From IMG/VR virus record IMGVR_UViG_3300009678_000001: a DNA stretch of 64,000 nucleotides, one strand, 5' to 3'. Position numbers and translations under genes: made by a program. The DNA is from a virus. A model generated the notes under the pieces. The model searched no databases and was not told the DNA's origin. It saw nothing but the letters and a program-made list of their open reading frames with translations. Shown piece by piece: positions 34,439 through 62,981 of the stretch. Positions within the stretch are counted from its first letter, which is position 1, and every line of letters starts with the position of its first letter.

Positions 34439-34645
34439 TTAAGACCCATTATCAAGGTAACTTATCAAAACATCATTCTGTGCTTGGTCCTTTACTTGGT
34501 CCCAAATTGAGTCATGAATTGGCCAAATTACGTTCCGAACTTGGTTCTCAACTTGGTCTGGAGTCTGGCCTTTAATTTGGCTTCTCATATGCCACATTTG
34601 GCTTCTGACGTGCTGTTGCCAAATTTGAACCTTTAAAGCATCCAT
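34439..34645 (-). CDS. QVWD-repeat family micro-protein
   Basis: 68 aa. ..QIWQQHVRSQMWHMRSQIKGQTPDQVENQVRNVIW..IWDQVKDQ with period-4 Q-[VI]-W/x-D/x. Confidence 0.6.
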   Translation of the reverse strand: MDALKVQIWQQHVRSQMWHMRSQIKGQTPDQVENQVRNVIWPIHDSIWDQVKDQAQNDVLISYLDNGS

Positions 34646-34650
34646 TCCCT

Positions 34651-34800
34651 TTAATTAATACTATCAATTAGCTTACCAAGAACAGAATTTTTATATCCAC
34701 TCTCCGTTGCATCCATTACGAGACAGACCAACGGAAAAATTGTAATTGTACACACAATCAGCAAAAAAAGGATAATTATTGCTCTGGCAAAAACTCTCAT
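34651..34800 (-). CDS. small membrane protein (below the ORF-track cutoff)
   Basis: 49 aa: MRVFARAIIILFLLIVCTITIFPLVCLVMD... TAATATG junction with the upstream gene. Confidence 0.45.
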   Translation of the reverse strand: MRVFARAIIILFLLIVCTITIFPLVCLVMDATESGYKNSVLGKLIDSIN

Positions 34801-34801
34801 A

Positions 34802-35017
34802 TTAATCTTTTGTGTTTATGTTTTCTTCTAAACCCTTAACTATACATTCTGCCCATCGTGCGCCGAACCTCTTGTCATCAAGCTCCTTATCAATTTCCTT
34901 TAGAAAGGACTGAATGTCTCTGCCTAAACCATCAGGGTAGCCGTCGCCATGCCTATAGACAATGGCTCCAGTTGAATCGTCGCTGTAACAGAAATGAATT
35001 GTAGCTCTAGTTGACAT
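34802..35017 (-). CDS. hypothetical protein
   Basis: 71 aa with its own promoter. Confidence 0.6.
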   Translation of the reverse strand: MSTRATIHFCYSDDSTGAIVYRHGDGYPDGLGRDIQSFLKEIDKELDDKRFGARWAECIVKGLEENINTKD

Positions 35018-35023
35018 ATTTGG

Positions 35024-35051
35024 ATTATACGATATCTTTTTAAAACGTCAA
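35024..35051 (-). promoter_or_regulatory. class I promoter
   Basis: TTGACG-16-TATAAT, 6 nt to the ATG at 35017. The upstream TGA stop lies inside the -35 box. Confidence 0.6.
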
Positions 35052-35254
35052 GCGCCCGTTAATGGTTCAAACGTCCTATCTTTAGGCCAACGGGCTAACC
35101 TATGGTCGTTAGCGTATTTTAGCCAAGCTTCTGCTTTTTCTTTATCCTTCCAAATATTCAAGGCAATCTGGCGCATTTCTAGGGCAGTTTGTTCCTCTTG
35201 ATAATGCCACATATCCCTATCATCTGAGGACTTAATGTCACGCCAAGAAATCAT
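35048..35254 (-). CDS. hypothetical protein
   Basis: 68 aa. ATG preceded by an ISL. Ends ..LTGA*. Confidence 0.6.
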   Translation of the reverse strand: MISWRDIKSSDDRDMWHYQEEQTALEMRQIALNIWKDKEKAEAWLKYANDHRLARWPKDRTFEPLTGA

Positions 35255-35278
35255 ATGCTCAAACGCCGCAGGGCTTTA
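35255..35278 (-). repeat. ISL element
   Basis: TAAAGCCCTGCGGCGTTTGAGCAT-ATG lies between the stop at 35276 and the ATG at 35254. Confidence 0.8.
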
Positions 35279-38112: not shown

Positions 38113-38295
38113 TGCTCCAAAGCCGCAGGGCTTTTTAATATGAATTGAATATCTGTTGTAATTTGGTCCGCAATTGGGTCCCCAATTTTAACCAACTGTT
38201 CGGTCCCAAATGTGATTTTCAACTTGTTCTTGAACTTGGTCCCTAATTTCGTACCTAACTTGGTCTTCAAGTGTATCCCAAACTTTCTTCCCTAT
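38110..38295 (-). pseudogene. decayed QVWD-family gene
   Basis: Repeat units are still readable (..VWDTLEDQVRYEIRDQVQEQVENHIWD..), but there is no ATG (ATA in its place) and an internal frameshift. It is flanked by ISL copies. Confidence 0.35.
38114..38136 (-). repeat. ISL element (perfect 6-bp stem variant)
   Basis: AAAAAGCC-CTGC-GGCTTTGGAGCAT abuts the TTGACA of the next promoter. Confidence 0.75.
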
Positions 38296-39437: not shown

Positions 39438-39662
39438 CTAAGTGTTAAAGTTTTTATCGTCTTCGGCTTCTTTCTGAGACTGGTTCCGAATTTGACTCCC
39501 GATTTGTTCCCAAATTTGTTCTCCAATCTGATTCTTGAAGTGTTTCCAAGTATATAGCCAAATATGATTCCCGGTTTGTTCCAATACTTGGTTATTAATG
39601 CTATCAGATACTTGCGATATCTGCTCCCAAACCGGCTCTTTTTTAAAGACAATAATATCCAT
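39438..39662 (-). CDS. QVWD-repeat family micro-protein
   Basis: 74 aa from MDIIVFKKEPVWEQISQV..NQIGEQIWEQIGSQIRNQ. Confidence 0.55.
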   Translation of the reverse strand: MDIIVFKKEPVWEQISQVSDSINNQVLEQTGNHIWLYTWKHFKNQIGEQIWEQIGSQIRNQSQKEAEDDKNFNT

Positions 39663-40336: not shown

Positions 40337-40384
40337 AAAAAATTTAATATTCCGAACTTGGTCCCCAACTTGACCTTCGTTCAT
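40334..40384 (-). pseudogene. 16-codon stub of a QVWD-family gene
   Basis: MNEGQVGDQVRNIKFF*, with its stop inside the ISL. Confidence 0.3.
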
Positions 40385-42822: not shown

Positions 42823-43174
42823 GTTCTATTTTAGCGTAAAGAACATCGGGAGGAACTTTAAAGAACAAGGTCAGGGCGTTACAAAGCCAAAAAATCATCC
42901 CCTCAGTTTCCCATTCGTAAAGCGTCCCCGATTCAGGTTGAACTTCTTTGGGACATTTAGTAGCTTTAGCTGTATAGTTAGGGAAAAACTCGTCCGAGAA
43001 AATCAGATTAAAGCCTTTTTTCATGGTAATTTTACCCTTGAGTTTTAACATTCTATCAATTGCTTGTGTTGCTCCTCCTACGAAAGCCTCTGCGACCAAA
43101 CCTAAGGTAGGTTCGTCAAAAACCCAAATTTTGCCTAGCTTATATGGGCGAATTATAAATATTTTATTTTCCAT
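42812..43174 (-). CDS. hypothetical protein
   Basis: 120 aa, TAATG overlap with the macro-domain gene. Confidence 0.65.
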   Translation of the reverse strand: MENKIFIIRPYKLGKIWVFDEPTLGLVAEAFVGGATQAIDRMLKLKGKITMKKGFNLIFSDEFFPNYTAKATKCPKEVQPESGTLYEWETEGMIFWLCNALTLFFKVPPDVLYAKIELDF

Positions 43175-43632
43175 TAAGCTAGTTGATTGATTACGATAAG
43201 CATGTCTGTGTCTTTAAATACTTCTTCAATCATTACCCTGACAATCCTCCAGTTCCCTCCCGCCAAACCGCACCCCATTTTAAAAGGAATTCCAATAGAT
43301 TTAATTCCTTTGGCTACAGCGTCGTTTTTCATTTTGTCGAGGGCTTTATAAAGGGCTTCATAATTTAACGCCCGAAGACCCCCAATTTCAAATTGACCAT
43401 ACAAATTGTAAATATGTTTAATGTAATCGCCTGAAACCTGAGAGACTGAAAAGGTTCCGAGTTTTGTTCTTTTCCCGTAAGAAGTATTCTTGTCTGTTTC
43501 TAACACTTCTGGCCACTGGCGAGCGATAGCAAGAGCTACACCCGCTCCCATGGTGTGAAAACAGTTTGCAACGTGAGCTATAGCATCTGTTTTGGAAAAA
43601 ACAATAGAACGGTTTTGAGTAACGCTATTCAT
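43174..43632 (-). CDS. macro-domain (ADP-ribose binding/hydrolase) protein
   Basis: 152 aa from the ATG 8 nt after the -10 box. AHVANCFHTMGAGVALAI and IGIPFKMGCGLAGGNW match the two Gly-rich macro-domain loops. Confidence 0.65.
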   Translation of the reverse strand: MNSVTQNRSIVFSKTDAIAHVANCFHTMGAGVALAIARQWPEVLETDKNTSYGKRTKLGTFSVSQVSGDYIKHIYNLYGQFEIGGLRALNYEALYKALDKMKNDAVAKGIKSIGIPFKMGCGLAGGNWRIVRVMIEEVFKDTDMLIVINQLA

Positions 43633-43640
43633 AAAAACGC

Positions 43641-43668
43641 ATTCTACAACATCTTTTTCAAACGTCAA
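43641..43668 (-). promoter_or_regulatory. class I promoter
   Basis: TTGACG-16-TAGAAT, 8 nt to the ATG at 43632. The upstream TGA stop lies inside the -35 box. Confidence 0.6.
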
Positions 43669-43919
43669 CAATAATCCAAAACCTCTGTAAAGTCTTGTAT
43701 TTGCTTGGTGCCGCCCTCTGATTCTTTTATTAGTTTAATATAAGTTTCCTTATTAATAGTCCTTGAAGGCATACTGGCTAGTTCTAATGTAAAAATGTCG
43801 GGAGTTGATTGCGCATAACTTGAATGCCTAAACAAACAACCAGTTAGTAAATTAGTAAACTTGTAATAGCCCTCAATATAGACCTTTGCGGTTAGATAGT
43901 AATTGTGGGGAGACAACAT
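43665..43919 (-). CDS. hypothetical protein
   Basis: 84 aa from the Met just after the upstream stop (TAAGATG). Confidence 0.55.
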   Translation of the reverse strand: MLSPHNYYLTAKVYIEGYYKFTNLLTGCLFRHSSYAQSTPDIFTLELASMPSRTINKETYIKLIKESEGGTKQIQDFTEVLDYC

Positions 43920-45016: not shown

Positions 45017-45265
45017 TCAAAATGAGTTTTTGGTAGTTACAAAAACTTGTTCCATAATTTGGAGTCGAACCTGTTCTTGGGTTTGTTCCCAACCTCTTTC
45101 TAATTGGTCCCAAACTTGGTTTCCAACTTGGTTTCCAATTTGATTGCTAAAGTGATACCTAATTTGATTTAGAATTGTTAAATATTTTTTATCCATTTCA
45201 CAAACAGGTCTAAGACAAAAACCATACCGAATGCTAAAACTAATATTAATATAATGTACATTCAT
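45017..45265 (-). CDS. QVWD-repeat family micro-protein
   Basis: 82 aa. ..NQIRYHFSNQIGNQVGNQVWDQLERGWEQTQEQVRLQIMEQV. ATGA overlap with the upstream gene. Confidence 0.55.
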   Translation of the reverse strand: MNVHYINISFSIRYGFCLRPVCEMDKKYLTILNQIRYHFSNQIGNQVGNQVWDQLERGWEQTQEQVRLQIMEQVFVTTKNSF

Positions 45266-45477
45266 TCAACTAAACTGTTGATTTGGTGCTCAATTTGGTA
45301 GCCAATTTCTGCCCACATTTGGTTTTGAGTTTGGTCCCAAACTTTGTTTTCTATGGTTTGATGCCCAATTTGCTTAGAAATTTGAAGTCTTATTAAGTCC
45401 AAAGTATCTGTTAAGACTTGGCACTGAAACCGGTACTGGTCCCTAATTTGGTCTTTTGTTTTAAATCTCTTCAACAC
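45262..45477 (-). CDS. QVWD-repeat family micro-protein
   Basis: 71 aa. ..DQIRDQYRFQCQV..KQIGHQTIENKVWDQTQNQMWAEIGYQIEHQI. Confidence 0.55.
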   Translation of the reverse strand: MLKRFKTKDQIRDQYRFQCQVLTDTLDLIRLQISKQIGHQTIENKVWDQTQNQMWAEIGYQIEHQINSLVE

Positions 45478-45808: not shown

Positions 45809-45832
45809 ATGCTCAAGCGCCGCAGGGCTTAG
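45809..45832 (-). repeat. ISL element (consensus)
   Basis: CTAAGCCCTGCGGCGCTTGAGCAT-ATG. Confidence 0.85.
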
Positions 45833-46034: not shown

Positions 46035-46057
46035 ATGCTCAAGCGCCGCAGGGCTTA
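46035..46057 (-). repeat. ISL element (consensus)
   Basis: CTAAGCCCTGCGGCGCTTGAGCAT-ATG, identical to the copy at 45809. Confidence 0.85.
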
Positions 46058-46330: not shown

Positions 46331-46358
46331 ATGATAGCGGGTCTTTTTTAAAAATCAA
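46331..46358 (-). promoter_or_regulatory. class I promoter
   Basis: TTGATT-16-TATCAT, 6 nt to the ATG at 46324. Confidence 0.6.
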
Positions 46359-46542
46359 GTCGATTGCTCAAGCCGCTCCTAAAAATTTCACTTACAATTT
46401 GGTCCCAAATTTGCCCCTTAACTTGGTTCCAAGTTTGTCCTCCAATTTGGCTCCCAACTTGTTTCCAAACTTGCTCCCAGACTTGGTCCCCAACTTGGCT
46501 CCAAACTTGGTCTATAATCCTTTCTTTAATTATTTGGGTCAT
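46348..46542 (-). CDS. QVWD-repeat family micro-protein
   Basis: 64 aa. IIDQVWSQVGDQVWEQVWKQVGSQIGGQTWNQVKGQIWDQI. Confidence 0.65.
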   Translation of the reverse strand: MTQIIKERIIDQVWSQVGDQVWEQVWKQVGSQIGGQTWNQVKGQIWDQIVSEIFRSGLSNRLDF

Positions 46543-46548: not shown

Positions 46549-46773
46549 TTAAATTTGGTCCCAAATTGCGTCCTCAAGTTGTTTCCGAAGGTTGTCCCAA
46601 AGTTGTTCCCTAAGTGGATTCCAAACTTGTATAACCTGCATCCAAATTGGGTCCCAAACCTGTTCATCAAGCTGACTTTTAACTTGGTCCCCAACTTGGT
46701 CCCAAATAATCTTACGAATCTCAATATCGGTTTGGTACCAATCCTCCGATAATTTGTCTAGCATCATTTTCAT
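46549..46773 (-). CDS. QVWD-repeat family micro-protein
   Basis: 74 aa. IIWDQVGDQVKSQLDEQVWDPIWMQVIQVWNPLREQLWDNLRKQLEDAIWDQI. Confidence 0.65.
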   Translation of the reverse strand: MKMMLDKLSEDWYQTDIEIRKIIWDQVGDQVKSQLDEQVWDPIWMQVIQVWNPLREQLWDNLRKQLEDAIWDQI

Positions 46774-49925: not shown

Positions 49926-49934
49926 CAAATTAAC

Positions 49935-50939
49935 CTAATTTTTTGGCAAGGTTAAGTCCTGTAGGAGTAAATCAGTAGCCCTCTGTTTGAGATTAGCTCC
50001 AGTACCAAGTAGCGCCGATTCAAACTTTGCTTCCTGTCTATTAGCTCCTTCTTCTGCTCTGGTGCTTCTTTTTTGGTCAACAAATTCAGTTATACTGTTT
50101 AGGTAATCATACCTTGTCTCGCCTACATTCCCTGTGCCACGCTGAAAAAGTTCTGTTACCTGCTCTCGAATATTCTCAGTTCTTGAGCTACATTCATAAA
50201 GTCCAGTTTCCTTATTCAATTTCCCCGGAAACAAGGTTTCATTGTACCTAACTACCTCTTCTTCATTGCATTTCTGGTCTTTGAGCATTTTCAAGACTAG
50301 CTCCAGCCGCCCAAAATAACCATAAGCAATTCCGAGCGCCCTTTGAACTTCCTCTTTGTGACTCTTAAAACTTTTGGTATGGCGCATCTTAACCTGATTC
50401 TTTGCGCCTTTTAGGGCTGCATTAAGGGTGTTTTGACAGACTACCCGCACCGCTACATTCTGCATCCATACTGAGTGCGTACCATCGTGGCTTGAAATCA
50501 TCAAAATCCACTTGTCCATCTTATCGCTAGGGTCAATATACATGGTTTCTGGCAGCTTGGCCATAATCCAGATTTTGCGCCCCTCTCTTAAAGACCCCGC
50601 AGTCTCATAAACTGCCTGACCTTCAGAAATAACCGAATCAAAAAATTCAAAAGCTTCCTCGTTTTGGACTGGCGTATATCGATTACCTACCACTCCCAGT
50701 TTAACCCCATTGTCCTCCCTTACAACAGCTTTATAATCTTCAAATTCAGAAAGACCACTCTCTGTCTGAATAAAAATTGGCTCTTTGCGAACCCTCCAAT
50801 CCAAATGCGCCAATTGGATTGCTTCTTTGGCTGTAACTGTTCCTTTGACAACGCTTCCCAATGAATGCCAAGGAACTATATTATTACCGCTAAAAGTTTC
50901 CGCAGTGCCGTCTTCTCTAATTGTTATTTCGTGTGACAT
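49935..50939 (-). CDS. DUF932-like (phage/plasmid TIGR03299-type) protein
   Basis: 334 aa. ..NIVPWHSLGSVV..TAKEAIQLAHLDWRVRKEPIF..AVVREDNGVKLGVVGNRYTPVQNEEAFEFFD..ETAGSLREGRKIWI matches the family pattern. Confidence 0.7.
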   Translation of the reverse strand: MSHEITIREDGTAETFSGNNIVPWHSLGSVVKGTVTAKEAIQLAHLDWRVRKEPIFIQTESGLSEFEDYKAVVREDNGVKLGVVGNRYTPVQNEEAFEFFDSVISEGQAVYETAGSLREGRKIWIMAKLPETMYIDPSDKMDKWILMISSHDGTHSVWMQNVAVRVVCQNTLNAALKGAKNQVKMRHTKSFKSHKEEVQRALGIAYGYFGRLELVLKMLKDQKCNEEEVVRYNETLFPGKLNKETGLYECSSRTENIREQVTELFQRGTGNVGETRYDYLNSITEFVDQKRSTRAEEGANRQEAKFESALLGTGANLKQRATDLLLQDLTLPKN

Positions 50940-51409: not shown

Positions 51410-51430
51410 TGCTCAAGCGCCGCAAGGCTA
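51410..51430 (-). repeat. ISL element
   Basis: TAGCCTTGCGGCGCTTGAGCA-ATG. Confidence 0.8.
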
Positions 51431-51616
51431 GTTTATTTTTAGGTCTCTAACTTGGTCCCAAATTTGTCCCACAACTTGGCTTCTAAATTGGTCCTGTATT
51501 TGGCTTTGGCCCCAAATTTGTTTCTTGGTTTCATGCCCAACTTGGTCCCAAATTTCGCTCCAAATTTGGTCCCAAACTTGGTCCCGAACTTGTCTTTTTA
51601 TTAAATTACTATTCAT
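51428..51616 (-). CDS. QVWD-repeat family micro-protein
   Basis: 62 aa. [45 protein letters not shown]. Confidence 0.65.
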   Translation of the reverse strand: MNSNLIKRQVRDQVWDQIWSEIWDQVGHETKKQIWGQSQIQDQFRSQVVGQIWDQVRDLKIN

Positions 51617-51896: not shown

Positions 51897-51912
51897 TTTC
51901 GCCGCAGGGCTA
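51897..51912 (-). repeat. ISL element (tandem partner, truncated)
   Basis: TAGCCCTGCGGCGAAAA begins with the TAG stop of 51910..52116. Confidence 0.65.
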
Positions 51913-52116
51913 GTTTATTTTTATGTTCCAAATGTGTTCCACAACTTGGCCTTCTACTTCTTCCCCAACTTCTTCCCAAACTTGGCCCCAAACTTGTTCA
52001 AAAACCTGTTCCCAAACTTGACCTTCTACTTGGTCCCAAATTTGTTCCCCAATATGGTTATGAACTTGGCTCCTAATTTGGTCATCAATTTGCTTCCTAA
52101 TGTTATCTTTCGTCAT
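51910..52116 (-). CDS. QVWD-repeat family micro-protein
   Basis: 68 aa. MTKDNIRKQIDDQIRSQVHNHIGEQIWDQVEGQVWEQVFEQVWGQVWEEV..KIN*. Confidence 0.65.
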   Translation of the reverse strand: MTKDNIRKQIDDQIRSQVHNHIGEQIWDQVEGQVWEQVFEQVWGQVWEEVGEEVEGQVVEHIWNIKIN

Positions 52117-52375: not shown

Positions 52376-52398
52376 TGCTCAAGCGCCGCAGGGCTTAA
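52376..52398 (-). repeat. ISL element (consensus)
   Basis: TTAAGCCCTGCGGCGCTTGAGCAT abuts TTGACA. Confidence 0.8.
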
Positions 52399-52407: not shown

Positions 52408-52641
52408 TTAAAACGCCGAGGGGCTAAGCGCCATAGGGGGTTCTGTGTTCCAAGCTTGGTGCCAAATTTGGTTTTCTACTTGGCTCCCAATCTGTTCCCA
52501 AACTTGGTCCCAAATCTGTTCCCAAACTTGGCCCCAAACTTGGCCTTCTATTTGGTTCCAAATTTGGTCCCCAATATGGTGGTCCCCAATATGGTCCCTA
52601 ACTTGGTCCATAACTTGGTTCTGAATGTTGTCTCTTGTCAT
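52408..52641 (-). CDS. QVWD-repeat family micro-protein
   Basis: 77 aa. MTRDNIQNQVMDQVRDHIGD..QIWNQIEGQVWGQVWEQIWDQVWEQIGSQVENQIW. Confidence 0.65.
   Translation of the reverse strand: MTRDNIQNQVMDQVRDHIGDHHIGDQIWNQIEGQVWGQVWEQIWDQVWEQIGSQVENQIWHQAWNTEPPMALSPSAF
52410..52432 (-). repeat. ISL element embedded in the 3-prime end of a CDS
   Basis: GGCGCTTAGCCCCTCGGCGTTTTAA is translated as ..ALSPSAF*. Confidence 0.7.
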
Positions 52642-52655: not shown

Positions 52656-52865
52656 CTAGGTTTCACTAAAACATTTATTTGAAATTTGTATCATAACTTC
52701 ATGCCGTAATTGGTTCCAGTGTTCCTGACCTTGGTAAACTTGGTCCCCAACTTGGTTCCAAACTGCTTGGTTCCCAACTAGGTTTTGAATACTCTTAAAA
52801 GTTTGCCCCAAAACGCCATTATATAACTGATGATGTAACTGATTCTCAATCTTATTTCTAGTCAT
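52656..52865 (-). CDS. QVWD-repeat family micro-protein (divergent)
   Basis: 69 aa. MTRNKIENQLHHQLYNGVLGQ..NLVGNQAVWNQVGDQVYQGQEHWNQL. Confidence 0.55.
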   Translation of the reverse strand: MTRNKIENQLHHQLYNGVLGQTFKSIQNLVGNQAVWNQVGDQVYQGQEHWNQLRHEVMIQISNKCFSET

Positions 52866-53067
52866 GTGTCTCTAAAACTTGGTCCCCAACTTGGGTCCTA
52901 ACTTGGTTCCGAATTTCTTCTAAAGATGGATGTAAAAAACGTCGCCCCCAAAGTAACGGGTGCGAAGTCGGGTCTTGGATTTGATTATAAATTTGCTTCA
53001 AAATTTGGTCCCAAGTTTGGCCCCAAACTTTTGCGAACACCTGACTCTTAATCTCATCTTTGGTCAT
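52858..53067 (-). CDS. QVWD-repeat family micro-protein (divergent)
   Basis: 69 aa from MTKDEIKSQVFAKVWGQTWDQILKQIYNQIQD..IRNQVRTQVGDQV. Confidence 0.55.
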   Translation of the reverse strand: MTKDEIKSQVFAKVWGQTWDQILKQIYNQIQDPTSHPLLWGRRFLHPSLEEIRNQVRTQVGDQVLETHD

Positions 53068-53071: not shown

Positions 53072-53278
53072 TTAGTAAATTTTGCTGCACCGAAAAACTT
53101 GGTACAAAATTTCATTTTTAATTTCATACCTTATTTGTGGGTCCCAATAATCCTGAATTTGGTTATGAACCTGCTTGCTAATTTGGTTGCCAGCTTGGTT
53201 GAACAACGGTCTTACAACAAGTTCCGAAGTTTGACCCCGAACAAAAGCATCCTGATTCTCAATCTTATCTTGGGTCAT
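53072..53278 (-). CDS. QVWD-repeat family micro-protein (divergent)
   Basis: 68 aa. MTQDKIENQDAF..NQAGNQISKQVHNQIQDYWDPQIRYEIKNEILYQV. Confidence 0.5.
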   Translation of the reverse strand: MTQDKIENQDAFVRGQTSELVVRPLFNQAGNQISKQVHNQIQDYWDPQIRYEIKNEILYQVFRCSKIY

Positions 53279-54002
53279 ATTTTATTAAAAAAGGTAAATA
53301 CAATTTAATACAAATCTCAGTAGCCACTTTTTCATCAAAACAATATGTAATCGTTCGTTTTTCAAAAGCTTTGTCTAATTCTTTTTCAGCTTCATCTACT
53401 TGTTTGTTTAAATCTTCTTTTTTGTAATTAGCTGGATTAGTTTTAATATCTATTAACCGCGCCGCAAAATCAGGGTTATATTTTTTGACATTAACGGGAA
53501 AAATCCCGTCAGTAAAAAAATACTTACCAGCCCAAGCAAGCCTAAATAATTGCACCGCATTCTTAAAAGAATAGCCAAACTCTTCTACCGCCTTGTGCCG
53601 CTTTGAACCTAAAAGCCCAGTCCGCTCGCCGTTCATCAATCTTCTTTCCCCAAACATGTAGCCTTTTAAAGATTTATATAAATGTTTACTATCAAGCAAA
53701 GAAAATTTATGAGTAAGGATTAACGCCCATTCTGGAGAGGGTTTAAAATTCGGCGCTTCATCTGTAAAAAGCAATTCTAAAGCCTGAGTGTTAGTCTTTC
53801 TTAAGCTGGATAAAAAATGTCGAAGCTCAAAAAGAAAAGTATCATCATTTTCTTTTTTAATATCCTGATGGTCGAACCTTTGGAGACCAATAATCTTTTC
53901 GGGTTCTTCGTTTAAAAAACAACCCCTAGCGTCCAAGTCGGACGCTGGAGTATTTAAACCGTAAGCATGACTTCCACCAAGAGTTGAGTAAATAATCTTC
54001 AT
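53265..54002 (-). CDS. pol-beta superfamily nucleotidyltransferase (RNA-repair-associated type suspected)
   Basis: 245 aa. N-terminal LGGSHAYGLNTPASDLDARG fits the hG[GS]-x(9-13)-DhD motif. Overall shape resembles the PF10127-type predicted nucleotidyltransferases. Confidence 0.65.
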   Translation of the reverse strand: MKIIYSTLGGSHAYGLNTPASDLDARGCFLNEEPEKIIGLQRFDHQDIKKENDDTFLFELRHFLSSLRKTNTQALELLFTDEAPNFKPSPEWALILTHKFSLLDSKHLYKSLKGYMFGERRLMNGERTGLLGSKRHKAVEEFGYSFKNAVQLFRLAWAGKYFFTDGIFPVNVKKYNPDFAARLIDIKTNPANYKKEDLNKQVDEAEKELDKAFEKRTITYCFDEKVATEICIKLYLPFLIKYDPR

Positions 54003-55498: not shown

Positions 55499-55722
55499 AC
55501 ATTAATAAAAACAATTTCTAAAAGCGTTTCTTTCACAATCCCGCTACGCAAATCAGATTGCGGCCAAAACATTGCATCCATTTGACTTCTAAAACGGTTG
55601 TTAACTTGCGCACTAATTTTGTCAAGAATAAACCATTCAGTTTTTTGAATTTCTACTCCGACGCTGTTGTGAACGCTGTTTTCTACTTTATTAAGCCGCA
55701 CTGACAAATCGTCCATTTTCAT
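55495..55722 (-). CDS. hypothetical protein
   Basis: 75 aa, overlaps the rIIB-like gene end by 32 nt. Confidence 0.5.
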   Translation of the reverse strand: MKMDDLSVRLNKVENSVHNSVGVEIQKTEWFILDKISAQVNNRFRSQMDAMFWPQSDLRSGIVKETLLEIVFINV

Positions 55723-56596
55723 CGCGCTTATTGTAATAAGTCACCTTAACCTTACCAAGCTTGTTTTTTTCGCTTGCAAACCTGCCAAAGGAGTCGCGCT
55801 TAGGGTTGAAAGCTTTAAGCCTGTTCCCTGTCACTTTACCAGAATACAGCCTTTCTGTCAAGATGTTGCCATTTTCCCATTTTCCAACCACCGAAACAGG
55901 AAGATATCTCCAAGCTCTGCCTTTGGACTTATTTAAATCTTGCGGGATTGCAACAACATCCATTGGATTAACTTTGACAACAACAACTTTAGTTTTGTTG
56001 TTTATAATACCCCCATAATAAGGCAAATAGGAATAAGAACAAAAATGTAGCCCATTTGAACAAAGCCTGATTCTGCTTGGGTCTACTTCATTGGGGTCCA
56101 TTTTGACAATCTTGCCAATAGCATGTTTCAAATGAGTGCCATCAGGAGACTTGTTATAGGAAGTCATGTCTTCTCTCAGCATCTTATAAGCAAGAAAACA
56201 CCCGTCATCAGTAATAGGCATCTCTCCATTTTCAAGAAAATCGTACAGTTCGTTTCGTGCATCTTCTGAAGGATTTTTATAGAGATTAGCCAAAAACCTC
56301 ACATAAGGTTCATAAGGGAAACCTCCTTGGACAAACTGTAAAATGCGCTTAACCAAGGTCCCATGAATTTCCTGTCCGTCATAATAAATCGCGCCGCTGT
56401 GGACTTTCACTTTGCCGTAGCTATGCTTTAGGATAGCGCCGGGAAGGTCCATTGCTTCAATCAGCTTCTTGTAATTCTTCTGTCTGTAAAACTCAAGAGC
56501 CTTTTGCCAATTTGGGTGGGTTGAATTGATGGAGTGCCGTTTACCATCTACCACCACAACCAGCACGTTGCCGTTAAAAATTGCTGAAACGTTCAT
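55691..56596 (-). CDS. rIIB: rIIB-like protein
   Basis: 301 aa. Blocks VVVDGKRHSINSTHPNWQKALE, GAIYYDGQEIHGTLVKRIL, YVRFLANLYKNPS, DDGCFLAYK, SNGLHFCSYSY and VVKVNPMDVVAIP parallel T4 rIIB as I recall it. Lies near an rIIA-like gene. Confidence 0.65.
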   Translation of the reverse strand: MNVSAIFNGNVLVVVVDGKRHSINSTHPNWQKALEFYRQKNYKKLIEAMDLPGAILKHSYGKVKVHSGAIYYDGQEIHGTLVKRILQFVQGGFPYEPYVRFLANLYKNPSEDARNELYDFLENGEMPITDDGCFLAYKMLREDMTSYNKSPDGTHLKHAIGKIVKMDPNEVDPSRIRLCSNGLHFCSYSYLPYYGGIINNKTKVVVVKVNPMDVVAIPQDLNKSKGRAWRYLPVSVVGKWENGNILTERLYSGKVTGNRLKAFNPKRDSFGRFASEKNKLGKVKVTYYNKRDENGRFVSAA

Positions 56597-56603
56597 ATTT
56601 TTA

Positions 56604-56631
56604 ATTGTATTAAAAATTTTTAAAATGTCAA
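56604..56631 (-). promoter_or_regulatory. class I promoter
   Basis: TTGACA-16-TACAAT, 7 nt to the ATG at 56596. Confidence 0.6.
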
Positions 56632-56654
56632 TGCTCCAAAGCCGCAGGGCTTAA
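56632..56654 (-). repeat. ISL element (perfect-stem variant)
   Basis: TTAAGCCCTGCGGCTTTGGAGCAT abuts TTGACA. Confidence 0.75.
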
Positions 56655-56663
56655 CCTTTTTTT

Positions 56664-56682
56664 AAAACGCCGGAGGGGCTAA
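56664..56682 (-). repeat. ISL element (tandem partner)
   Basis: TTAGCCCCTCCGGCGTTTT begins with the TAG stop of 56679..56861. Confidence 0.65.
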
Positions 56683-56861
56683 AAAATGTCAAAAGTTTGG
56701 TCCCAAATACGGTCCAAAACTTGGTCTGCAACTTCATCTCTAAATTCACTAATGTCCCAAATTATAAGCGCAATCTGGCCCTTCACACTCCCCTCAACTT
56801 GGTCCGCTATTTGTCTTACGAGTGTGTCTTTAATTTTTTGGACCTTGTTATTTACTCTCAT
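56679..56861 (-). CDS. QVWD-repeat family micro-protein (divergent)
   Basis: 60 aa. ..VRQIADQVEGSVKGQIALIIWDISEFRDEVADQVLDRIWDQTFD. Confidence 0.5.
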   Translation of the reverse strand: MRVNNKVQKIKDTLVRQIADQVEGSVKGQIALIIWDISEFRDEVADQVLDRIWDQTFDIF

Positions 56862-57078
56862 AAAAAATCTGGTTCCAATGGTTTAGAAGGTATTCCCAAA
56901 TTGGGTCTGCAACATCCTCAATCGTAAGTGCAATACTGTCTCTTTGGTCCCAAATCAGGTCTCTTACTGACTGCCCAACGTGGCTTACAATTTGGTCAAC
57001 AAGGTGGTCGTCAGATTCATGAATTCGATTTCTAATTTGATAAAGAGTTTCGCTCTCAATTTTGGTTAAATATATCAT
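56848..57078 (-). CDS. QVWD-repeat family micro-protein (divergent)
   Basis: 76 aa. ..YQIRNRIHESDDHLVDQIVSHVGQSVRDLIWDQRD..ADPIWEYLLNHWNQI. Confidence 0.5.
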   Translation of the reverse strand: MIYLTKIESETLYQIRNRIHESDDHLVDQIVSHVGQSVRDLIWDQRDSIALTIEDVADPIWEYLLNHWNQIFYESK

Positions 57079-59180
57079 TTTTCCCTTATATAAGCCAAAA
57101 GGTCTTTTTGAATGTCTTCTTCCTCTTTCTCAAAACCGTAACTTTCCATTGCGTGTTTGATATAAGAATACAAAGGATAGTGTTTTAAAACATCGCTCTT
57201 AAGGCTCGCAAAATCAACACTGGGCGTTTTAGTGCTTTCAGTCGCAAGCATGAAACCTTTCTTTGCCGAATTAATTACATTAATAATAGCAAGTTTTTGG
57301 CGTGCCTTTTTGGAAGCAACCTCTAGCTTAATATAGGCTCTCAAAAGCTCCGCAAAGGGAGAATCTTTTTTCACGCCAGACCATTTATACTCGCCCAAAT
57401 AACTTTCCTCTATGCTGTCAAAAGCCTCTTTGTCTGCAATAAGCTGAGAAAGGTCTTCTTTGGCTATAGTCGCCTCAACCGCTTGAATTAAGTAATCCTT
57501 AAGAGTAACCCATTCGCTCAAATCTTCTTTAGCCACCAAAGCTTTCTTAAAACCATAGACTACAGGAACAGGATAATTAAGAGAACGTAAGGTGTCTAAA
57601 ACCGACTGAATAAATTTTGACCGTTTTTTGTCGTTTTCTTCCCAACAAACTTCATACCTGTCAATTTCAACATAGACCCCGCCCTCTTCAAGGTCTACTT
57701 CTGCAATATCCCAAAAATCACTTTTAGCCCTGCCATCAGGATTAAATACAAAGACCTTTTTGGAATTCTTCTCATTATTACCATTATAGGTATTGGGGGG
57801 CACAGGAAGCTCTTTAACCGACTTAAGTTGGGGAACCAAGTCTTCAAGCCCCATCTCTTTAAGTAGTAGCTCCCGATATTCGGGCTTAGTTGCCACAATC
57901 ATCCAAACATATTCACAATAAGTTTCTTTAAAATGATAGGAAACCCTGCTCTTACACCTTGTTGCGTCTTTAATGTAGACTTGCAAGTCTTTCTTAAAAG
58001 GCAATCTGTCTACAATCTCTAAAGATACCTTTTTGCGCCCGTTCCTATACCAACGCTCAATGAAAACATCATTGGGCTGTAGATTATTACGCTTATAAAA
58101 GTCTTCAGGAACCATAAAGTTAGTCCCCTTGACAGACTGACCGCCAAACTGAAGGTCTAAACCCTCAATAATATAGCGCAAGTTGCTGCTATAAGCTCCA
58201 TCTAGAAACAAATCAGCCCAAATTTCTCTGGCGTTCCAAAGAGTTCTGGCACTGGCAAATTTAGCCTTTACCGTCTCTTCAAATCCACCAATAATTTCTC
58301 GACATAAAAGCAAAATAGCATTCTTGGTCTTATCTGTATATTGTAAACCTTCCCGATTAACCGCAATATCAAGGTCGCCAATATTAAAATGAAACACTAA
58401 ACCAGACTGAAGAAGACGTTCTAGTTTAGCATCAAGACTGGTAAAAACACTGGCGCGAATGGGATATGCAACCTGCCCCATTACCGCATAAGAAGTGGTT
58501 TGATTCTTATACATCACCCAATTCTTACCACTAAAAGCCTCTTCCAGTGGAATTTGGTTATAGTAACGATTCCCTATAATTTTTGGCGCAACCTTCCAAA
58601 ACCTAAAAACATCCTGTGCTTTTAGTCGAAATTCTTCAAAATCAAATTCATTAACAGGGACAATAATTTCAATCCCATCTGGCTCTTCAGTGGGGCTTTT
58701 ATCCATTTGGGCAATACGCCCTTCCTGTGAAGGGTCAATGAAAGCAGTGTAAGTAGTCTTAACGCCTTCCTGATAACTTACAATAGAAAAACTGTCCCCG
58801 TAAGCAAAACCCGACTTGGAACCAATCCCCAACATCCCAATAGTCGCATTGGAATTTCTTTTCGTTGATTTGCAATACTTTACATAGGTATTGGTTACAT
58901 CTTCATCGCTGAGGCCAGTCCCAAAATCGCGCACTCGAAACTCTGGTTCCAAAACATTAGGCAAGTGAACTTGGATAGGAAGGTCCCCTTTTCCAGCCTC
59001 TACATTAGCGTCATAAGCATTACAGCTATATTCCCTGATAACAGCCTTGGTCTTATCCTCATAAAGACTGTTCCGTAGAATATGAAAAAGCATTGAAAAG
59101 TCTTGGGCATCAATCCCAAAACTATTCACTTTCAAATCACCTTCTGTTTCAAGAATCCGGCTCTGTTGTGTTAAAATCAT
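57075..59180 (-). CDS. rIIA: rIIA-like protein (N-terminal GHKL/HATPase_c domain)
   Basis: 701 aa. N-box VIREYSCNAYDAN, G1 VRDFGTGLS, G2 GMLGIGSKSGFAYGDSFSIVSY, DGIEIIVPV. Size and block order parallel T4 rIIA. Confidence 0.78.
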   Translation of the reverse strand: MILTQQSRILETEGDLKVNSFGIDAQDFSMLFHILRNSLYEDKTKAVIREYSCNAYDANVEAGKGDLPIQVHLPNVLEPEFRVRDFGTGLSDEDVTNTYVKYCKSTKRNSNATIGMLGIGSKSGFAYGDSFSIVSYQEGVKTTYTAFIDPSQEGRIAQMDKSPTEEPDGIEIIVPVNEFDFEEFRLKAQDVFRFWKVAPKIIGNRYYNQIPLEEAFSGKNWVMYKNQTTSYAVMGQVAYPIRASVFTSLDAKLERLLQSGLVFHFNIGDLDIAVNREGLQYTDKTKNAILLLCREIIGGFEETVKAKFASARTLWNAREIWADLFLDGAYSSNLRYIIEGLDLQFGGQSVKGTNFMVPEDFYKRNNLQPNDVFIERWYRNGRKKVSLEIVDRLPFKKDLQVYIKDATRCKSRVSYHFKETYCEYVWMIVATKPEYRELLLKEMGLEDLVPQLKSVKELPVPPNTYNGNNEKNSKKVFVFNPDGRAKSDFWDIAEVDLEEGGVYVEIDRYEVCWEENDKKRSKFIQSVLDTLRSLNYPVPVVYGFKKALVAKEDLSEWVTLKDYLIQAVEATIAKEDLSQLIADKEAFDSIEESYLGEYKWSGVKKDSPFAELLRAYIKLEVASKKARQKLAIINVINSAKKGFMLATESTKTPSVDFASLKSDVLKHYPLYSYIKHAMESYGFEKEEEDIQKDLLAYIREK

Positions 59181-60335: not shown

Positions 60336-61355
60336 CTAGGTTAATTTCTCTGCATTCGTAAACCAATTACTGTTGCGCCATTTAAGGGCCGCTTCAATCG
60401 TGCTACATTCAGGGGCTACGCCCTCCAAATGCCACACTCCAACTGAAGGATTAAGCATCTTAAGATATTTGGCGTTTGGAACAACGTCTGATAAATTGAC
60501 ACTAAGAAGCTCATAGTTGCCAAGCTTTTCCAAAACCTTATGACTTAAGCTTACCAACATGCGCTCAATTCCAATTTTGCGAATTAGCTCTCTCCGCTTG
60601 TCCACATTGGTTTCTTTTAAAACTTCTTTGGGATTGAGTTTTTCCGCAGGAGTTAAAACCTGTTTTGGGGACATAGCTATTCCATTCAGGAAATAAAGCT
60701 TCCAACCATCAGAATATTCAACCGCTGGAGCTTCATCTTTGTGAAGTCGCCCTTCGCTATTGCGCCAAATTTGGGTTGGCTTGCTGGTAACAATGAGGCA
60801 GCTATCAGTAGGGTAAAAAAGGCCCAAATCCGCGCAAGCTTCAAGCTTATCGTAGTTTTTCATAACTTCAGCGTCAAATTTAACTCCAATCATCTTGTAG
60901 GCGCTTACCCACCCAAAATAATTGGAATAAAAATGACCATCAAAGTAGGGCCAGACAAAAAGCTTAATGGTATTTTTGAGCTTTGTAATAAGGTCCTCTT
61001 CTGAAAGAGGATTTTTGGACTTGAAAGTTATTTGGCTATTAATCTGTTCCCAAGTTGTTTCAAACAAGCCCCGCAAATTCTTATTTATCTCACTAAAACT
61101 GGGGCGCTTTGGATTCCAGTTTTCATAGCCCCCCTCACTCAAAAGGCAAAAGGCAATCCAACCGCCAAAAGGACTAGAAACATGAATGACGGGGTTTTTC
61201 TTGCCCAAAATTTGCTCGCTCCATTCGCCTCCTAGCCTTTGTGCTTCGCTGGTTGGAACTTGGCGACAGTCAAGCGCCCTGTCCCGCCAGTAATTCTTGA
61301 TTTCCTCAAGTTTTTTGACTTGTTCGTCAGTTAGTTTTTCGATTTTATCTGCCAT
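60336..61355 (-). CDS. hypothetical protein
   Basis: 339 aa, no recognised motif. Confidence 0.7.
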   Translation of the reverse strand: MADKIEKLTDEQVKKLEEIKNYWRDRALDCRQVPTSEAQRLGGEWSEQILGKKNPVIHVSSPFGGWIAFCLLSEGGYENWNPKRPSFSEINKNLRGLFETTWEQINSQITFKSKNPLSEEDLITKLKNTIKLFVWPYFDGHFYSNYFGWVSAYKMIGVKFDAEVMKNYDKLEACADLGLFYPTDSCLIVTSKPTQIWRNSEGRLHKDEAPAVEYSDGWKLYFLNGIAMSPKQVLTPAEKLNPKEVLKETNVDKRRELIRKIGIERMLVSLSHKVLEKLGNYELLSVNLSDVVPNAKYLKMLNPSVGVWHLEGVAPECSTIEAALKWRNSNWFTNAEKLT

Positions 61356-61387
61356 ATTTTTTTAAGTTGTTCTCTAAATCTGTAGCT

Positions 61388-61415
61388 ATGGTAACAAAAC
61401 TTTTTGAAATGTCAA
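61388..61415 (-). promoter_or_regulatory. class I promoter (32-nt leader)
   Basis: TTGACA-16-TACCAT. The upstream TGA stop lies inside the -35 box. Confidence 0.5.
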
Positions 61416-61606
61416 CAGTTTAGAAATTTTGAGCTTTCGTCCCAAATTTGTTCTGAAATTTGTTCCCAAGCGTCTTCAAGTCGAAAAAACTTCTCGTTCG
61501 CTATAATTTGGCTCCGAATTTGGAGATGAACTTGGTTATAAATTTCTCCTCCAATCAAACTCCGAAGTTCTATAATTTTAGTCGTCATCTGGTTCAAACG
61601 GTTCAT
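61412..61606 (-). CDS. QVWD-repeat family micro-protein (divergent)
   Basis: 64 aa. ..GGEIYNQVHLQIRSQIIANE..DAWEQISEQIWDE. Confidence 0.5.
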   Translation of the reverse strand: MNRLNQMTTKIIELRSLIGGEIYNQVHLQIRSQIIANEKFFRLEDAWEQISEQIWDESSKFLNC

Positions 61607-61628
61607 ATATTCAAGCGCCGAGAGACTA
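61607..61628 (-). repeat. ISL element (variant)
   Basis: TAGTCTCTCGGCGCTTGAATAT-ATG. Confidence 0.65.
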
Positions 61629-61811
61629 TGTTGTTTTTGTGTTCATAACCGCAACTTGTTCCAAAATTGGGTTCCAAATTTGGTCCCTAAATTGGTCCCG
61701 CATTGGAGTCCAAACTTGGTACCTAAATTGGTTCTTAATTTGGTCCCCAACTTGGTTATTAATTTTATCCCAAATTTGGTCCCCCATAATCTGAATTTTA
61801 GTATTAGCCAT
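61626..61811 (-). CDS. QVWD-repeat family micro-protein
   Basis: 61 aa. IMGDQIWDKINNQVGDQIKNQFRYQVWTPMRDQFRDQIWNPILEQV. Confidence 0.6.
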   Translation of the reverse strand: MANTKIQIMGDQIWDKINNQVGDQIKNQFRYQVWTPMRDQFRDQIWNPILEQVAVMNTKTT

Positions 61812-61827
61812 AACTCTGGTTTCTTTA

Positions 61828-61977
61828 CTAAGGGCTTAGTGTCTCCCTAAAAACTTGGTTCCAAAGCTGGTCCTCAATTTGGTGCTTGATTCGGTTTTCT
61901 ATTGTGTCAATAACTTTCCCAACTTGGTCCCAAACTTGGCTCCTAGCTTGATTCCAAAAAGCATGAGATATAATCAT
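61828..61977 (-). CDS. QVWD-repeat family micro-protein
   Basis: 49 aa from the ATG in an ATGA overlap with the upstream stop. MIISHAFWNQARSQVWDQVGKVIDTIENRIKHQIEDQLWNQV. Confidence 0.55.
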   Translation of the reverse strand: MIISHAFWNQARSQVWDQVGKVIDTIENRIKHQIEDQLWNQVFRETLSP

Positions 61978-62981
61978 AGTTCTGGTTTCTTTACTAAAGT
62001 CATGCGCCGCCATATTAATTTGCGCAGTTTTCCTTCAGGACCATGGGGTTGATGGACGAGGCTTTTTCTTCGCCAATGCATCCGTGGAGAAGCGTGATGT
62101 CCCCCTAGACTTGGTGACTCGTGTTCAATCTTATAACCATATCCAACAATATTAGGAGACCAAAGCGCTTCTTTTTTAATTTCTCCCGTCTTAGCCTTTT
62201 TCTCGGGTCTTTCTAAAGATGCTGGCTTAATAAGTTTTGGACTGGTCCCCCAAACCATTAAAGTAAGGATTGTGGCTTGAACGGCCTTAATTAGGATTTT
62301 CTGTTCTTCTTCAGATGAAGGAGATGGGGATTTGTCGTTTTTAATTTTTTCATATAGTTTTGGTTGGTAGAGTTCATACATTAATTCTTGAACCTTTGTC
62401 ACATCTTCCCACCTACCTTCTTTTTCAGTTAGACCAACAGTACTAATTGGCATATTAGTTGGATACCACGCGGCATAATTAACAAAACGCCCGCTATCCA
62501 TTAAAAAAGGTAAATGAAAACACAAAGTTCCCACATTTACTTCTTGTCCCAAAACAAAATCTCCTTTATCTACAAGTGAAACGCCAATAAAGGGAAATCG
62601 CCAGCCTAAATAAGATTCAACAAATTGTGTTGGAAACACTAATATAAAATGTTTTAAAGGCAGATAAACTTCGCTAAAACTAAAATCTTGAGGAGGGACA
62701 GTCGCCACACATTCCAACAGAAATTCATGGTCAATAAAATAAGTCGGAACCTGAGTGTCTATCAAATTGTTGGTAACCGTTTTAATTACTTGGTCTGTGT
62801 CTCCTTGCAAAGAATAAAACCATGAATTAATAATGCCTAAAACAAGACTGTAATATTTTGGGTCATAATACCCATTAGGGCAGACAATTCGTTTCGGGTA
62901 AAACAAACTAATTCTTTCTTGCGCCTTTTCGCAAAGTTCTTTGAAATGGTCCCACTCGTTTTCAAAAATTTCAATCTTCAT
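61974..62981 (-). CDS. hypothetical protein
   Basis: 335 aa with its own promoter. Confidence 0.7.
   Translation of the reverse strand: MKIEIFENEWDHFKELCEKAQERISLFYPKRIVCPNGYYDPKYYSLVLGIINSWFYSLQGDTDQVIKTVTNNLIDTQVPTYFIDHEFLLECVATVPPQDFSFSEVYLPLKHFILVFPTQFVESYLGWRFPFIGVSLVDKGDFVLGQEVNVGTLCFHLPFLMDSGRFVNYAAWYPTNMPISTVGLTEKEGRWEDVTKVQELMYELYQPKLYEKIKNDKSPSPSSEEEQKILIKAVQATILTLMVWGTSPKLIKPASLERPEKKAKTGEIKKEALWSPNIVGYGYKIEHESPSLGGHHASPRMHWRRKSLVHQPHGPEGKLRKLIWRRMTLVKKPEL

Follow-up and report, generated by a model that had tools for sequence, protein, structure and literature searches.

Tetrapeptide Repeats in Phage Proteins

The only characterised tetrapeptide-repeat protein is gp54 of phage Tweety, in which 48 copies of a 12-bp unit encode A-A-[G/W/Q]-[S/Y] (Pham et al. 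2007, PMC2884959). The third-codon positions of this unit are invariant, the first and second positions vary, and the alternation between G and W is obtained via GGG and TGG (PMC2884959). The number of copies is 48 in Tweety, 26 in Che8, and 15 in PMC, and the gp54 gene is dispensable (PMC2884959). As two later reviews summarise, the number of gp54 units rises or falls in mutants that escape the MichelleMyBell and Phrann gp29/gp30 prophage defences, by which the counter-defence is "tuned" (PMC9262239, PMC8549241). The present work concerns a family of tetrapeptide-repeat mini-genes on the minus strand of a 64,000-nucleotide (nt) stretch of viral DNA (IMG/VR record IMGVR_UViG_3300009678_000001), referred to as the window, which means the whole stretch analysed. 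These mini-genes correspond to a variable tetrapeptide array that usually resides inside proteins of the DUF6745 family (PF20530) but stands free here.

The mini-genes resemble Tweety gp54, together with Che8 gp57 and PMC gp51, in the 12-bp unit encoding four amino acids (aa), in two invariant residues, and in the frozen third-codon positions. The number of gp54 units varies between close relatives, as it does in the DUF6745 arrays, and the lengths of the window paralogues are 41–82 aa. The differences concern the unit, which is A-A-[GWQ]-[SY] and not Q-V-x-D, and the organisation, as gp54 is a single gene with no described stand-alone or multi-copy version. In sequence, gp54 is homologous neither to DUF6745 nor to the mini-proteins: it has no Pfam family, and hhalign against the alignment of DUF6745 gives a probability of 0.1%. 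Since gp54 is not a DUF6745 protein, the likeness lies in the mechanism and the evolutionary signature and does not extend to family membership. Another example is the VR2 repeat of bbp36 from Bordetella phage BMP-1, which, as cited in the 2007 paper, is likewise a variable-copy, in-frame repeat of a non-essential gene, with a unit of 24 bp (PMC2884959).

Pentapeptide repeats (A[D/N]LXX; Qnr, MfpA) are similar in their short period and in the order of a polar and then a hydrophobic residue, and the N-L-[GRW]-[AD] variant of protein P0203 resembles a pentapeptide unit minus one residue. The difference is that the period here is strictly four (Fourier analysis 3.85–4.3; 12 nt in Tandem Repeats Finder, TRF), that Pfam PF00805 is not matched, and that the AlphaFold2 (AF2) model is a helix and not a beta-helix. 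The array also differs from a heptad coiled coil. The spectral power of m49757 (the mini-genes are labelled by the position of their start) is 230 at period 4.0 versus 1.1 at 3.6, and the power at 4.0 is far higher in the other regular members too. An earlier note on this DNA had described the repeat as neither a heptad coiled coil nor a pentapeptide repeat, which holds on both counts.

Free-Standing and DUF6745-Embedded Arrays

Twenty intact minus-strand open reading frames (ORFs) had been claimed for the window, and all of them are confirmed, each with its start, at 41–82 aa and in the D-Q-V-W frame. A hidden Markov model (HMM) of the repeat, built from 280 six-unit blocks of stand-alone mini-proteins of other viral contigs and none from the window, was searched against 548 window ORFs of at least 30 aa in six frames. 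It recovers 19 of the 20 (E 2e-30 to 5e-4), and the membership of the remaining one, m57078, is doubtful (E 3.5). All other HMM matches in the window are antisense readings of these same arrays. TRF places period-12 arrays at the same positions as the ORFs, the most regular being 49539–49745 with 17 copies and a score of 323. No members were found upstream of 34 kb by the HMM or by a scan for near-consensus units in the window, and at least one more is found shortly after the end of the window (L126:2210-2422). In each mini-protein, 5–17 units of Q-[VI]-x-[DN] stand between a head and a tail, both short at about 5–12 residues. Most starts overlap or abut the upstream stop codon (ATGA, TAATG). 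The starts, which had been given as proper ATG codons, are so in 18 of the 20 members, and the exceptions are GTG at 45477 and TTG at 47311. The mini-genes of the window are called as genes by public gene callers.

The exact 24-mer is present in one viral contig (L001), where an internal array of about 43 units lies in a 479-aa protein, in frame with both flanking domains and with exactly the codons of the window. This protein matches PF20530 (E 1e-14), as does a 339-aa ORF of the window (60336–61355, minus strand; E 3.7e-14), and the two align with each other at E 7e-30. In most DUF6745 proteins the array follows an N-terminal domain of about 70 aa and precedes the DUF6745 domain at the C-terminus. 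The DUF6745 gene of the window has no array; m61977, m61811, and m61606 are placed directly upstream of it on the same strand. DUF6745 homologues carry varied arrays at the same position (S-Q-V-x, [DA]-S-V-[WRG], S-A-V-[DNYR], [AD]-N-L-[GRW], S-Q-L-x), and some are array-less. In gp38 of the Mycobacterium prophage prophiGD102-1 the array is Q-L-[WRG]-[DG]. The lineages differ in the invariant dipeptide (S-V, A-V, N-L, Q-L, Q-V; e.g., P0133, P0170, P0203, P0139, and prophiGD102-1 gp38). Nearly all of them keep W/R/G after the dipeptide, which suggests that the mixture itself is selected.

The array thus occurs either as stand-alone mini-genes or as 10–90 units inside DUF6745 proteins. The window members have the features of the embedded arrays, namely the strict period of 4 aa and 12 nt, the invariant polar-hydrophobic dipeptide ([QSN][VLA]), and the W/R/G position encoded by NGG, except that each is an ORF by itself, with its own start and stop. 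The embedded arrays (the 479-aa protein of L001, P0122, P0135, and prophiGD102-1 gp38, all annotated as hypothetical) share the Q-V-[WRG]-[DNAG] unit and its variants and are described by one HMM. The 12-nt period, the NGG variation, the concerted evolution, and the phage neighbourhoods are common to both forms. There, however, the array is in cis, whereas here about 20 separate copies have their own start, head, tail, and stop, their units are more diverged, and Gly is less frequent (10% versus 33% in the embedded form). The micro-proteins have no PF20530 match, and they are too short for the C-terminal DUF6745 domain of about 200 aa.

The distribution of both forms is complementary. Among loci selected by the repeat pattern, a stand-alone array ORF was present elsewhere in the locus for 0 of 27 arrayed and 11 of 15 array-less DUF6745 genes. 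As the latter figure is inflated by ascertainment, the loci were redrawn by DUF6745 homology alone, giving 80 viral loci found via conserved C-domain peptides and 7 by exact protein look-up. In this set, same-strand stand-alone array ORFs occur within 10 kb of 0 of 55 arrayed genes versus 4 of 11 array-less or split ones (Fisher p = 4.6e-4). Same-strand adjacency to array-less DUF6745 genes is seen in the window and in L132, L007, L027, L029, L042, L061, and L088. An example is L132, in which one of four mini-genes lies 63 nt upstream of the array-less DUF6745 gene.

The largest expansion, far exceeding that of the window, is found in L144:6739-20085 (IMGVR_UViG_3300025162_000016, 368,758 bp), with an N-domain ORF, 9 mini-genes, a C-domain ORF, and at least 37 further mini-genes. 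These 46 tandem S-Q-V-x mini-genes are packed into about 13 kb, head to tail with stop/start overlaps, and have the heads MNNKLINDQV and the tails RSQLE[LS]HE. In L002:10001-11463, and likewise in L003–L005 (four ENA samples), a frameshift inside the array splits the DUF6745 gene, and the public call puts a spurious 194-aa gene antisense on the array. Such spurious antisense and split gene calls arise at the array loci because the unit is open in six frames.

Relatives in Sequence Databases

The mini-proteins had been proposed to lie outside described families. This is right for the stand-alone form, as no Pfam or PHROG family scored above threshold; the module itself is widespread and tied to a catalogued, uncharacterised family. 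The implied uniqueness is not borne out, because the window arrays are a detached version of a module that is common inside DUF6745 proteins, stand-alone copies exist in many viral contigs, and a comparable tetrapeptide array with a 12-bp unit had been reported in 2007 (PMC2884959). In the literature search neither "DUF6745" nor the peptide strings were found, and within it the stand-alone multi-copy form and the complementarity with DUF6745 are nowhere described. Pfam DUF4816 recurred as a candidate, always below threshold (best 29.2 versus the cut-off of 29.4, in L001), and PHROGs gave only weak matches to phrog_5189 and phrog_33514 (E ~1e-4); both candidates were rejected. A PADLOC search for known defence families returned nothing, the whole window contains no tRNA genes and no Rfam family at the gathering threshold, and megablast of 20 kb of the window found no GenBank phage match.

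The yield of protein searches depended on the query. With m52641, tblastn found the Mycobacterium prophage gp38 only, and a word-index search gave zero candidates; the same type of search with m49757 returned 131 small metagenomic homologues of 52–130 aa. The profile of the window micro-proteins, compared exhaustively with 1.84 billion representatives, matched 1,449 proteins (E <= 1e-3), with the top matches all being arrayed proteins of 300–600 aa. The pattern is present in at least 120 viral stretches; among 120 complete carrier ORFs, 77 have at most 100 aa and 22 have more than 400 aa. A scan of genome contigs gave mostly single-pattern matches. Stand-alone copies are often clustered (8 in L122, 5 in L099, 3 in L036), with conserved heads MKSV.NQV... 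and short tails.

Coding Frame and Selection on the Protein

The 12-nt unit GACCAAGTTTGG is free of stop codons in all six frames (DQVW, TKFG, and PSLG; on the other strand PNLV, QTWS, and KLGP). Therefore, the presence of an ORF alone proves nothing, and the frame needed separate tests. Summed over the 20 members, there are 0 internal stops in the D-Q-V-W frame, compared with 79 and 113 in the two remaining frames of this strand and 33, 48, and 74 in those of the opposite strand. Near-consensus units are in phase with the ORF in 153 of 159 cases. Position 10 of the window unit is occupied by T 83, G 34, C 21, and A 21 times, and positions 6 and 9 are the least variable. The variable positions 1, 7, and 10 are wobble positions of the +1 frame (T-K-F-G). 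That frame was rejected, as it contains the 79 stops, position 4, which is also a +1 wobble position, is nearly invariant, and the +1 peptide is unconserved between phages. The antisense frames (P-N-L-V, Q-T-W-S) are often open and give weak HMM matches; they were rejected because the flanking genes are all on the minus strand.

The peptide is written with different codons in different phages. In a codon-degenerate scan of viral contigs for Q-V-x-[DNAS], Q is encoded by CAG 1662 and by CAA 1255 times, V by GTC/GTT/GTG/GTA 1772/484/281/136 times, and the fourth residue by GAT, GCT, AAT, AGC, or GAC. The window members favour the ancestral codons, with CAA at 82% versus 61% in the background and GAC at 77% versus 43%. 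The proportion of nonsynonymous differences (pN) is lower than that of synonymous ones (pS) in 12 of 12 window paralogue pairs, and the corresponding rate ratio dN/dS is 0.23–0.86, which is modest evidence, given the partial saturation of dS and the use of protein-guided alignments.

The retention of the periodicity in divergent members, claimed in the earlier note, stands in part. Period-4 hydrophobicity is significant (at most 14 of 2000 shuffles) in 12 of the 20 members, compared with at most 1 of 16 small control ORFs, but it is absent in six, which are register-shifted or very diverged. Diverged members lose the nucleotide regularity and the RNA structure, yet keep the peptide period. The claimed selection on the protein is upheld by the sole stop-free frame, the differing codons across phages, the in-frame arrays of DUF6745 proteins, and the excess of pS over pN. 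The window ORFs are genuine paralogous protein-coding mini-genes.

Evolution of the Arrays and Structure of Their RNA

Substitutions in embedded arrays were counted in 35 arrays with 967 units, each compared with the consensus of its own array. The deviation is 0.3% at the third position of the Q codon, 0.8% at the third position of the V codon, 52% at the first base of the codon for the variable residue X, and 34% at the second base of the D codon. The X residue is Gly in 33%, Arg in 28%, and Trp in 26% of the units. Gly is encoded by GGG in 95% and Arg by AGG/CGG in 100% of the cases, whereas outside the arrays of the same ORFs the values are 19% and 30%. The stand-alone arrays are more diverged (5.5% at the third position of V, 13% at the third position of X), with Gly at only 10%. 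Codons are uniform within an array and different between phages, which points to concerted evolution by the gain and loss of units, with the unit diversity kept at one or two nucleotides. For example, P0204 and P0206 differ by exactly 14 units, and P0220 and P0237 have nearly identical flanks and different arrays. In the course of evolution the arrays gain or lose whole 12-nt units and are homogenised, with variation at the first base of NGG and in the D/N/A/S codon, and the family grew by tandem gene duplication. Mutagenesis of the diversity-generating retroelement (DGR) type was rejected, as the adenines of CAA are invariant and the variable base is the first position of the X codon (T/G/A/C). 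No DGR template repeat or reverse transcriptase turned up in the ORF and Pfam scans, beyond which no dedicated search was made.

The mRNAs of regular arrays are predicted to fold as long imperfect hairpins (49533–49757, z = -4.0; 52408–52641, z = -3.9; both on the minus strand), because CCAAGUUUGG is self-complementary with G-U pairs. Such hairpins could affect the translation or stability of these mRNAs.

Predicted Structure

AF2 with a paralogue alignment models m52116 as a single helix over residues 2–67, with a predicted local distance difference test (pLDDT) score of 86. The net charge of the mini-proteins ranges from +4 to -11, and their composition includes 5.4% W and 14.5% Q. The models suggest that each mini-protein is one long, mostly acidic alpha-helix with a spiralling V/W stripe. 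Geometrically, a strict period of four would make this stripe wind by about 40 degrees per unit, and hence fit neither the pattern of a heptad coiled coil nor that of an amphipathic helix with a straight face. A fold search with the single-helix model gave zero matches. The model of P0135, a DUF6745 homologue with a short array, has a pLDDT of 84, a predicted template modelling score (pTM) of 0.75, and two confident domains. The DUF6745 model has no relative among the solved structures of the PDB, and in BFVD it matches other DUF6745 proteins only, the best viral match being the arrayed DUF6745 protein of Microcystis phage Ma-LMM01, gp174.

Possible Role and Alternative Explanations

On balance, we lean slightly towards a reading in which the stand-alone arrays, as the free and multiplied form of the DUF6745 array, serve as a variable module, probably together with a DUF6745 core, in host takeover or counter-defence. 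The mini-genes would be expressed from early operons of the host-sigma70 type, and each mini-protein would act as a module of variable length and variable surface, probably with the array-less DUF6745 protein. Its role would be host takeover or counter-defence, as for the slippage-tunable array of Tweety gp54, and the many copies would form a repertoire of differently tuned modules. By this analogy, the arms-race function proposed in the earlier note is plausible, and the frozen-synonymous variation pattern and the anti-defence-like neighbourhood are consistent with it. The roles as DNA/RNA mimic, filament, or condensate suggested alongside it found no support.

Several observations weigh against the counter-defence module. 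Stand-alone arrays lie within 10 kb of only 4 of the 11 array-less or split loci, and 28 of the 43 pattern-selected loci with small array ORFs have no DUF6745 gene in the roughly 10 kb covered, so that the DUF6745 partnership is not obligatory on the scale sampled. The gp54 precedent comes from a protein that is not homologous to DUF6745, and the mechanism proposed for it relies on juxtaposed unique flanking domains, which the mini-proteins do not have. The structural models are equivocal too. AF2 tends to over-predict single helices for periodic sequences, the array in the P0135 model is a low-confidence helical segment (pLDDT 47–60), and the strict period of four would leave no straight amphipathic face for association. 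The dN/dS values of up to 0.86, the two relics, and the one doubtful member fit weak constraint. Finally, m49896 and m49757 may be expressed by read-through only, because a terminator-like hairpin lies upstream of them.

A role of the repeat at the level of DNA or RNA, with the ORFs being incidental, would make it a recombination site, a protein-binding site, or a structured RNA based on the self-complementarity of CCAAGUUUGG. The stop-free unit in six frames, the wobble positions as the most conserved ones within arrays, the codons of L001 identical to those of the window, and the long hairpins of regular arrays (z ~-4) would agree with it. However, the nucleotide unit varies across phages with the peptide kept, about half of the arrays have non-pairing combinations of the third positions of Q and V (A/C 45, A/G 9), diverged members such as m53278 retain frame and period after losing the RNA structure (z = -0.6), a single frame is open across whole members, and Rfam gives no match. 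A purely DNA- or RNA-level role is thus largely excluded, and we regard it as very improbable. The mini-genes might also be evolutionary debris, i.e., by-products of slippage, frameshift, or unequal recombination of the DUF6745 array that spread through large phage genomes as near-neutral or selfish tandem duplicates, perhaps translated and functionless. The frameshift in the array of L002–L005 shows such a birth mechanism, and fragments seldom gain stops because the unit is open in six frames; the relics, the doubtful member, the dN/dS as high as 0.86, and the expansions in very large contigs (209 kb and 369 kb) point the same way. We nevertheless consider it rather unlikely. Of the 22 copies, 20 remain intact, have a start codon, and are tightly coupled to the genes beside them, pN is below pS in all 12 pairs, and the heads and tails are conserved within families of several unrelated phages (MKSV.NQV...; MNNKLINDQV...RSQLELHE). 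The peptide period outlasts the nucleotide regularity and the RNA structure in diverged members, and the lower share of Gly at the variable position of stand-alone arrays (10% versus 33% in embedded ones) suggests a different constraint.

The mini-proteins could instead be autonomous, acting, for instance, as acidic nucleic-acid mimics, as W/R helices active on membranes, or by self-assembly into helical fibres or condensates, with the DUF6745 link reflecting ancestry only. This is doubtful in view of the complementary distribution with arrayed DUF6745 genes, the same-strand adjacency to array-less ones in the window and seven other loci, and the fold search that gave no structural match, and the charges of +4 to -11 between members misfit a uniform mimic. 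The 28 of 43 pattern-selected stand-alone loci without a DUF6745 gene in about 10 kb speak for autonomy, as do the long single helix predicted, the net charge of down to -11, and the content of W (5.4%) and Q (14.5%), and the presence of dozens of copies might be a matter of dosage. Returning to the module acting with DUF6745, a more specific and speculative form of it, to which we give little credence, is that the array-less DUF6745 core uses dozens of trans-encoded helical "rulers" or baits differing in length and W/R/G surface, as a split, combinatorial counterpart of gp54. These would be continually renewed by 12-nt slippage and tandem gene duplication and would form a standing repertoire of large phages against diverse host and prophage defences.

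The results link DUF6745, with its 1,449 array-bearing cluster representatives, the uncatalogued mini-proteins of phages, and Tweety gp54. They describe a class of mini-proteins that gene callers and family databases handle badly. The complementarity of fused and free arrays provides a concrete interaction hypothesis, and the pattern of frozen wobble positions and variable NGG is a clear signature of selection for unit diversity. If the counter-defence role is true, large phages hold slippage-driven repertoires of such modules.

Mini-Genes of the Window

All members are located on the minus strand, and the E values below are those of the repeat HMM. The first one, m34645 (34439–34645), encodes 68 aa with a diverged Q-[VI]-x-x array from an ATG start (E 5.3e-5; period-4 signal 10/2000 shuffles). 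The next, m39662 (39438–39662; 74 aa), has E 2.7e-7 in a longer TTG-start form and a period-4 signal of 4/2000, and its +1 frame is also open. Two decayed copies, reported in the earlier note, proved real in three-frame translation. The copy at 38195–38290 (KKVWDTLEDQVRYEIRDQVQEQVENHIWD) has three near-consensus units, is frameshifted, and lacks a start codon, and the stub at 40337–40384 (MNEGQVGDQVRNIKFF) has 16 codons with two near-consensus units.

Five members follow between 45 and 48 kb. The 82-aa m45265 (45017–45265; E 1e-9), with an alternative start at 45196 (59 aa), has an ATGA overlap with the stop of m45477 (45262–45477; 71 aa, GTG start; E 7.3e-5; period-4 3/2000). The 64-aa m46542 (46348–46542; E 7.9e-15; period-4 0/2000) and the 74-aa m46773 (46549–46773; E 3.5e-8) are followed by m47311 (47096–47311; 71 aa, TTG start; E 2.7e-8), in which register shifts abolish the whole-length period-4 signal. 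The most regular member is m49757 (49533–49757; 74 aa), with 17 units of GACCAAGTT[T/C]GG, a TRF score of 323, E 2.4e-30, and the RNA hairpin of z = -4.0. The start of the 41-aa m49896 (49771–49896; E 4e-11) lies downstream of a terminator-like hairpin at 49926–49903.

The region of 51–53 kb contains a block of five genes with the common head MT[KRQ]D.I..Q, and just beyond it m51616 (51428–51616; 62 aa; E 6.6e-13) with the tail ...LKIN, an ATGA overlap upstream, and a cassette (see below) after its stop. Within the block, m52116 (51910–52116; 68 aa; E 1.1e-13), the member with the single-helix AF2 model, has the head MTKDNIRKQ and the tail ...IKIN. It shares 36 of 68 aa with m52641 (52408–52641; 77 aa, head MTRDNIQNQ; E 2.8e-18), which is followed by a cassette and the promoter 52375. 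The others are m52865 (52656–52865; 69 aa, head MTRNKIENQ; E 4.7e-5; period-4 2/2000), m53067 (52858–53067; 69 aa, head MTKDEIKSQ; E 7.6e-10 in a longer form), and m53278 (53072–53278; 68 aa, head MTQDKIENQ), which is strongly diverged (E 5e-4; period-4 0/2000; RNA z = -0.6).

The diverged 60-aa m56861 (56679–56861; E 4.8e-4) is followed by a cassette and the promoter 56631. It shares 19 of 56 aa with the doubtful m57078 (56848–57078; 76 aa; E 3.5), which has no period-4 signal and an ATGA overlap with the rIIA-like gene. The last three members precede the array-less DUF6745 gene, presumed to be the partner or parent of the arrays. These are m61977 (61828–61977; 49 aa; E 4.8e-9 in a longer form), whose start abuts the AcrVA2-like stop and which has a public 49-aa gene call, m61811 (61626–61811; 61 aa; E 3.5e-10), called as a gene in public assemblies, and m61606 (61412–61606; 64 aa; E 1.3e-5), which ends 57 nt upstream of the DUF6745 gene, with a sigma70-like promoter at 61415–61388 between both.

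Cassettes, Promoters, and Neighbouring Genes

The motif AGCCCTGCGGCGCTTGAG has 16 copies between 27 and 57 kb, 15 of them on the minus strand, where 0 are expected. In its cassette form, AGCCC[TC][GT]CGGCGCTTGAG, it recurs on the minus strand within 27015–56651 (e.g., 45812–45829, 46038–46055, 52378–52395, 56634–56651). The idea that the mini-gene starts are placed right after conserved junction elements is mostly wrong, as the motif is a general intergenic cassette which usually follows micro-gene stops. Some cassettes lie 2–5 nt before the next ATG and others directly before a TTGACA-N16/17-TATAAT-like promoter; they are often preceded by a degenerate copy and a terminator-like T/A run, and a small hairpin AAGCCC-TGC-GG(C)GCTT is possible within them. 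The six best sigma70-like promoters (60333, 56631, 52375, 61415, 48785, 44277) all belong to the minus strand, four of them coming directly after a cassette, and as predicted sites they fit early-type operons of the host RNA polymerase. The DUF932 gene is separated from m49896 by the strong terminator-like hairpin mentioned above, GGGGTAGCC-TTGC-GGGGCTACCC and then a T-rich tract (49903–49926, minus strand).

The micro-genes are interspersed with what appears to be an anti-defence or host-takeover-like gene set. It includes genes for a macro domain (43174–43671), an RNA ligase (47647–48642), DUF932 (49935–50939), RlaP, an RNA repair protein (53265–54002), rIIA-like HATPase and rIIB (55691–59180), and an AcrVA2-like protein (61974–62981), the names of the rII and AcrVA2-like genes coming from precomputed Pfam matches. 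In Ma-LMM01, prophiGD102-1, and L001 the DUF6745 gene is located in the replication/early module.

The DUF6745 protein of the window is identical to P0121, whose gene lies on a contig of 208,933 bp from soil-type metagenomes of ENA and JGI. Among the strain variants L126, L127, and L128 the identity is 99.98%, which leaves no usable polymorphism. Two small ORFs, at 63641–63874 on the minus strand (MNFLNKFTMNRNIFRDRVWNHPYSQIK...) and at L126:7037-7282 (METNIIWNQVWTHPNSQIEK...), are alike and begin with one or two repeat-like units; this pair may represent a further, highly diverged sub-family.

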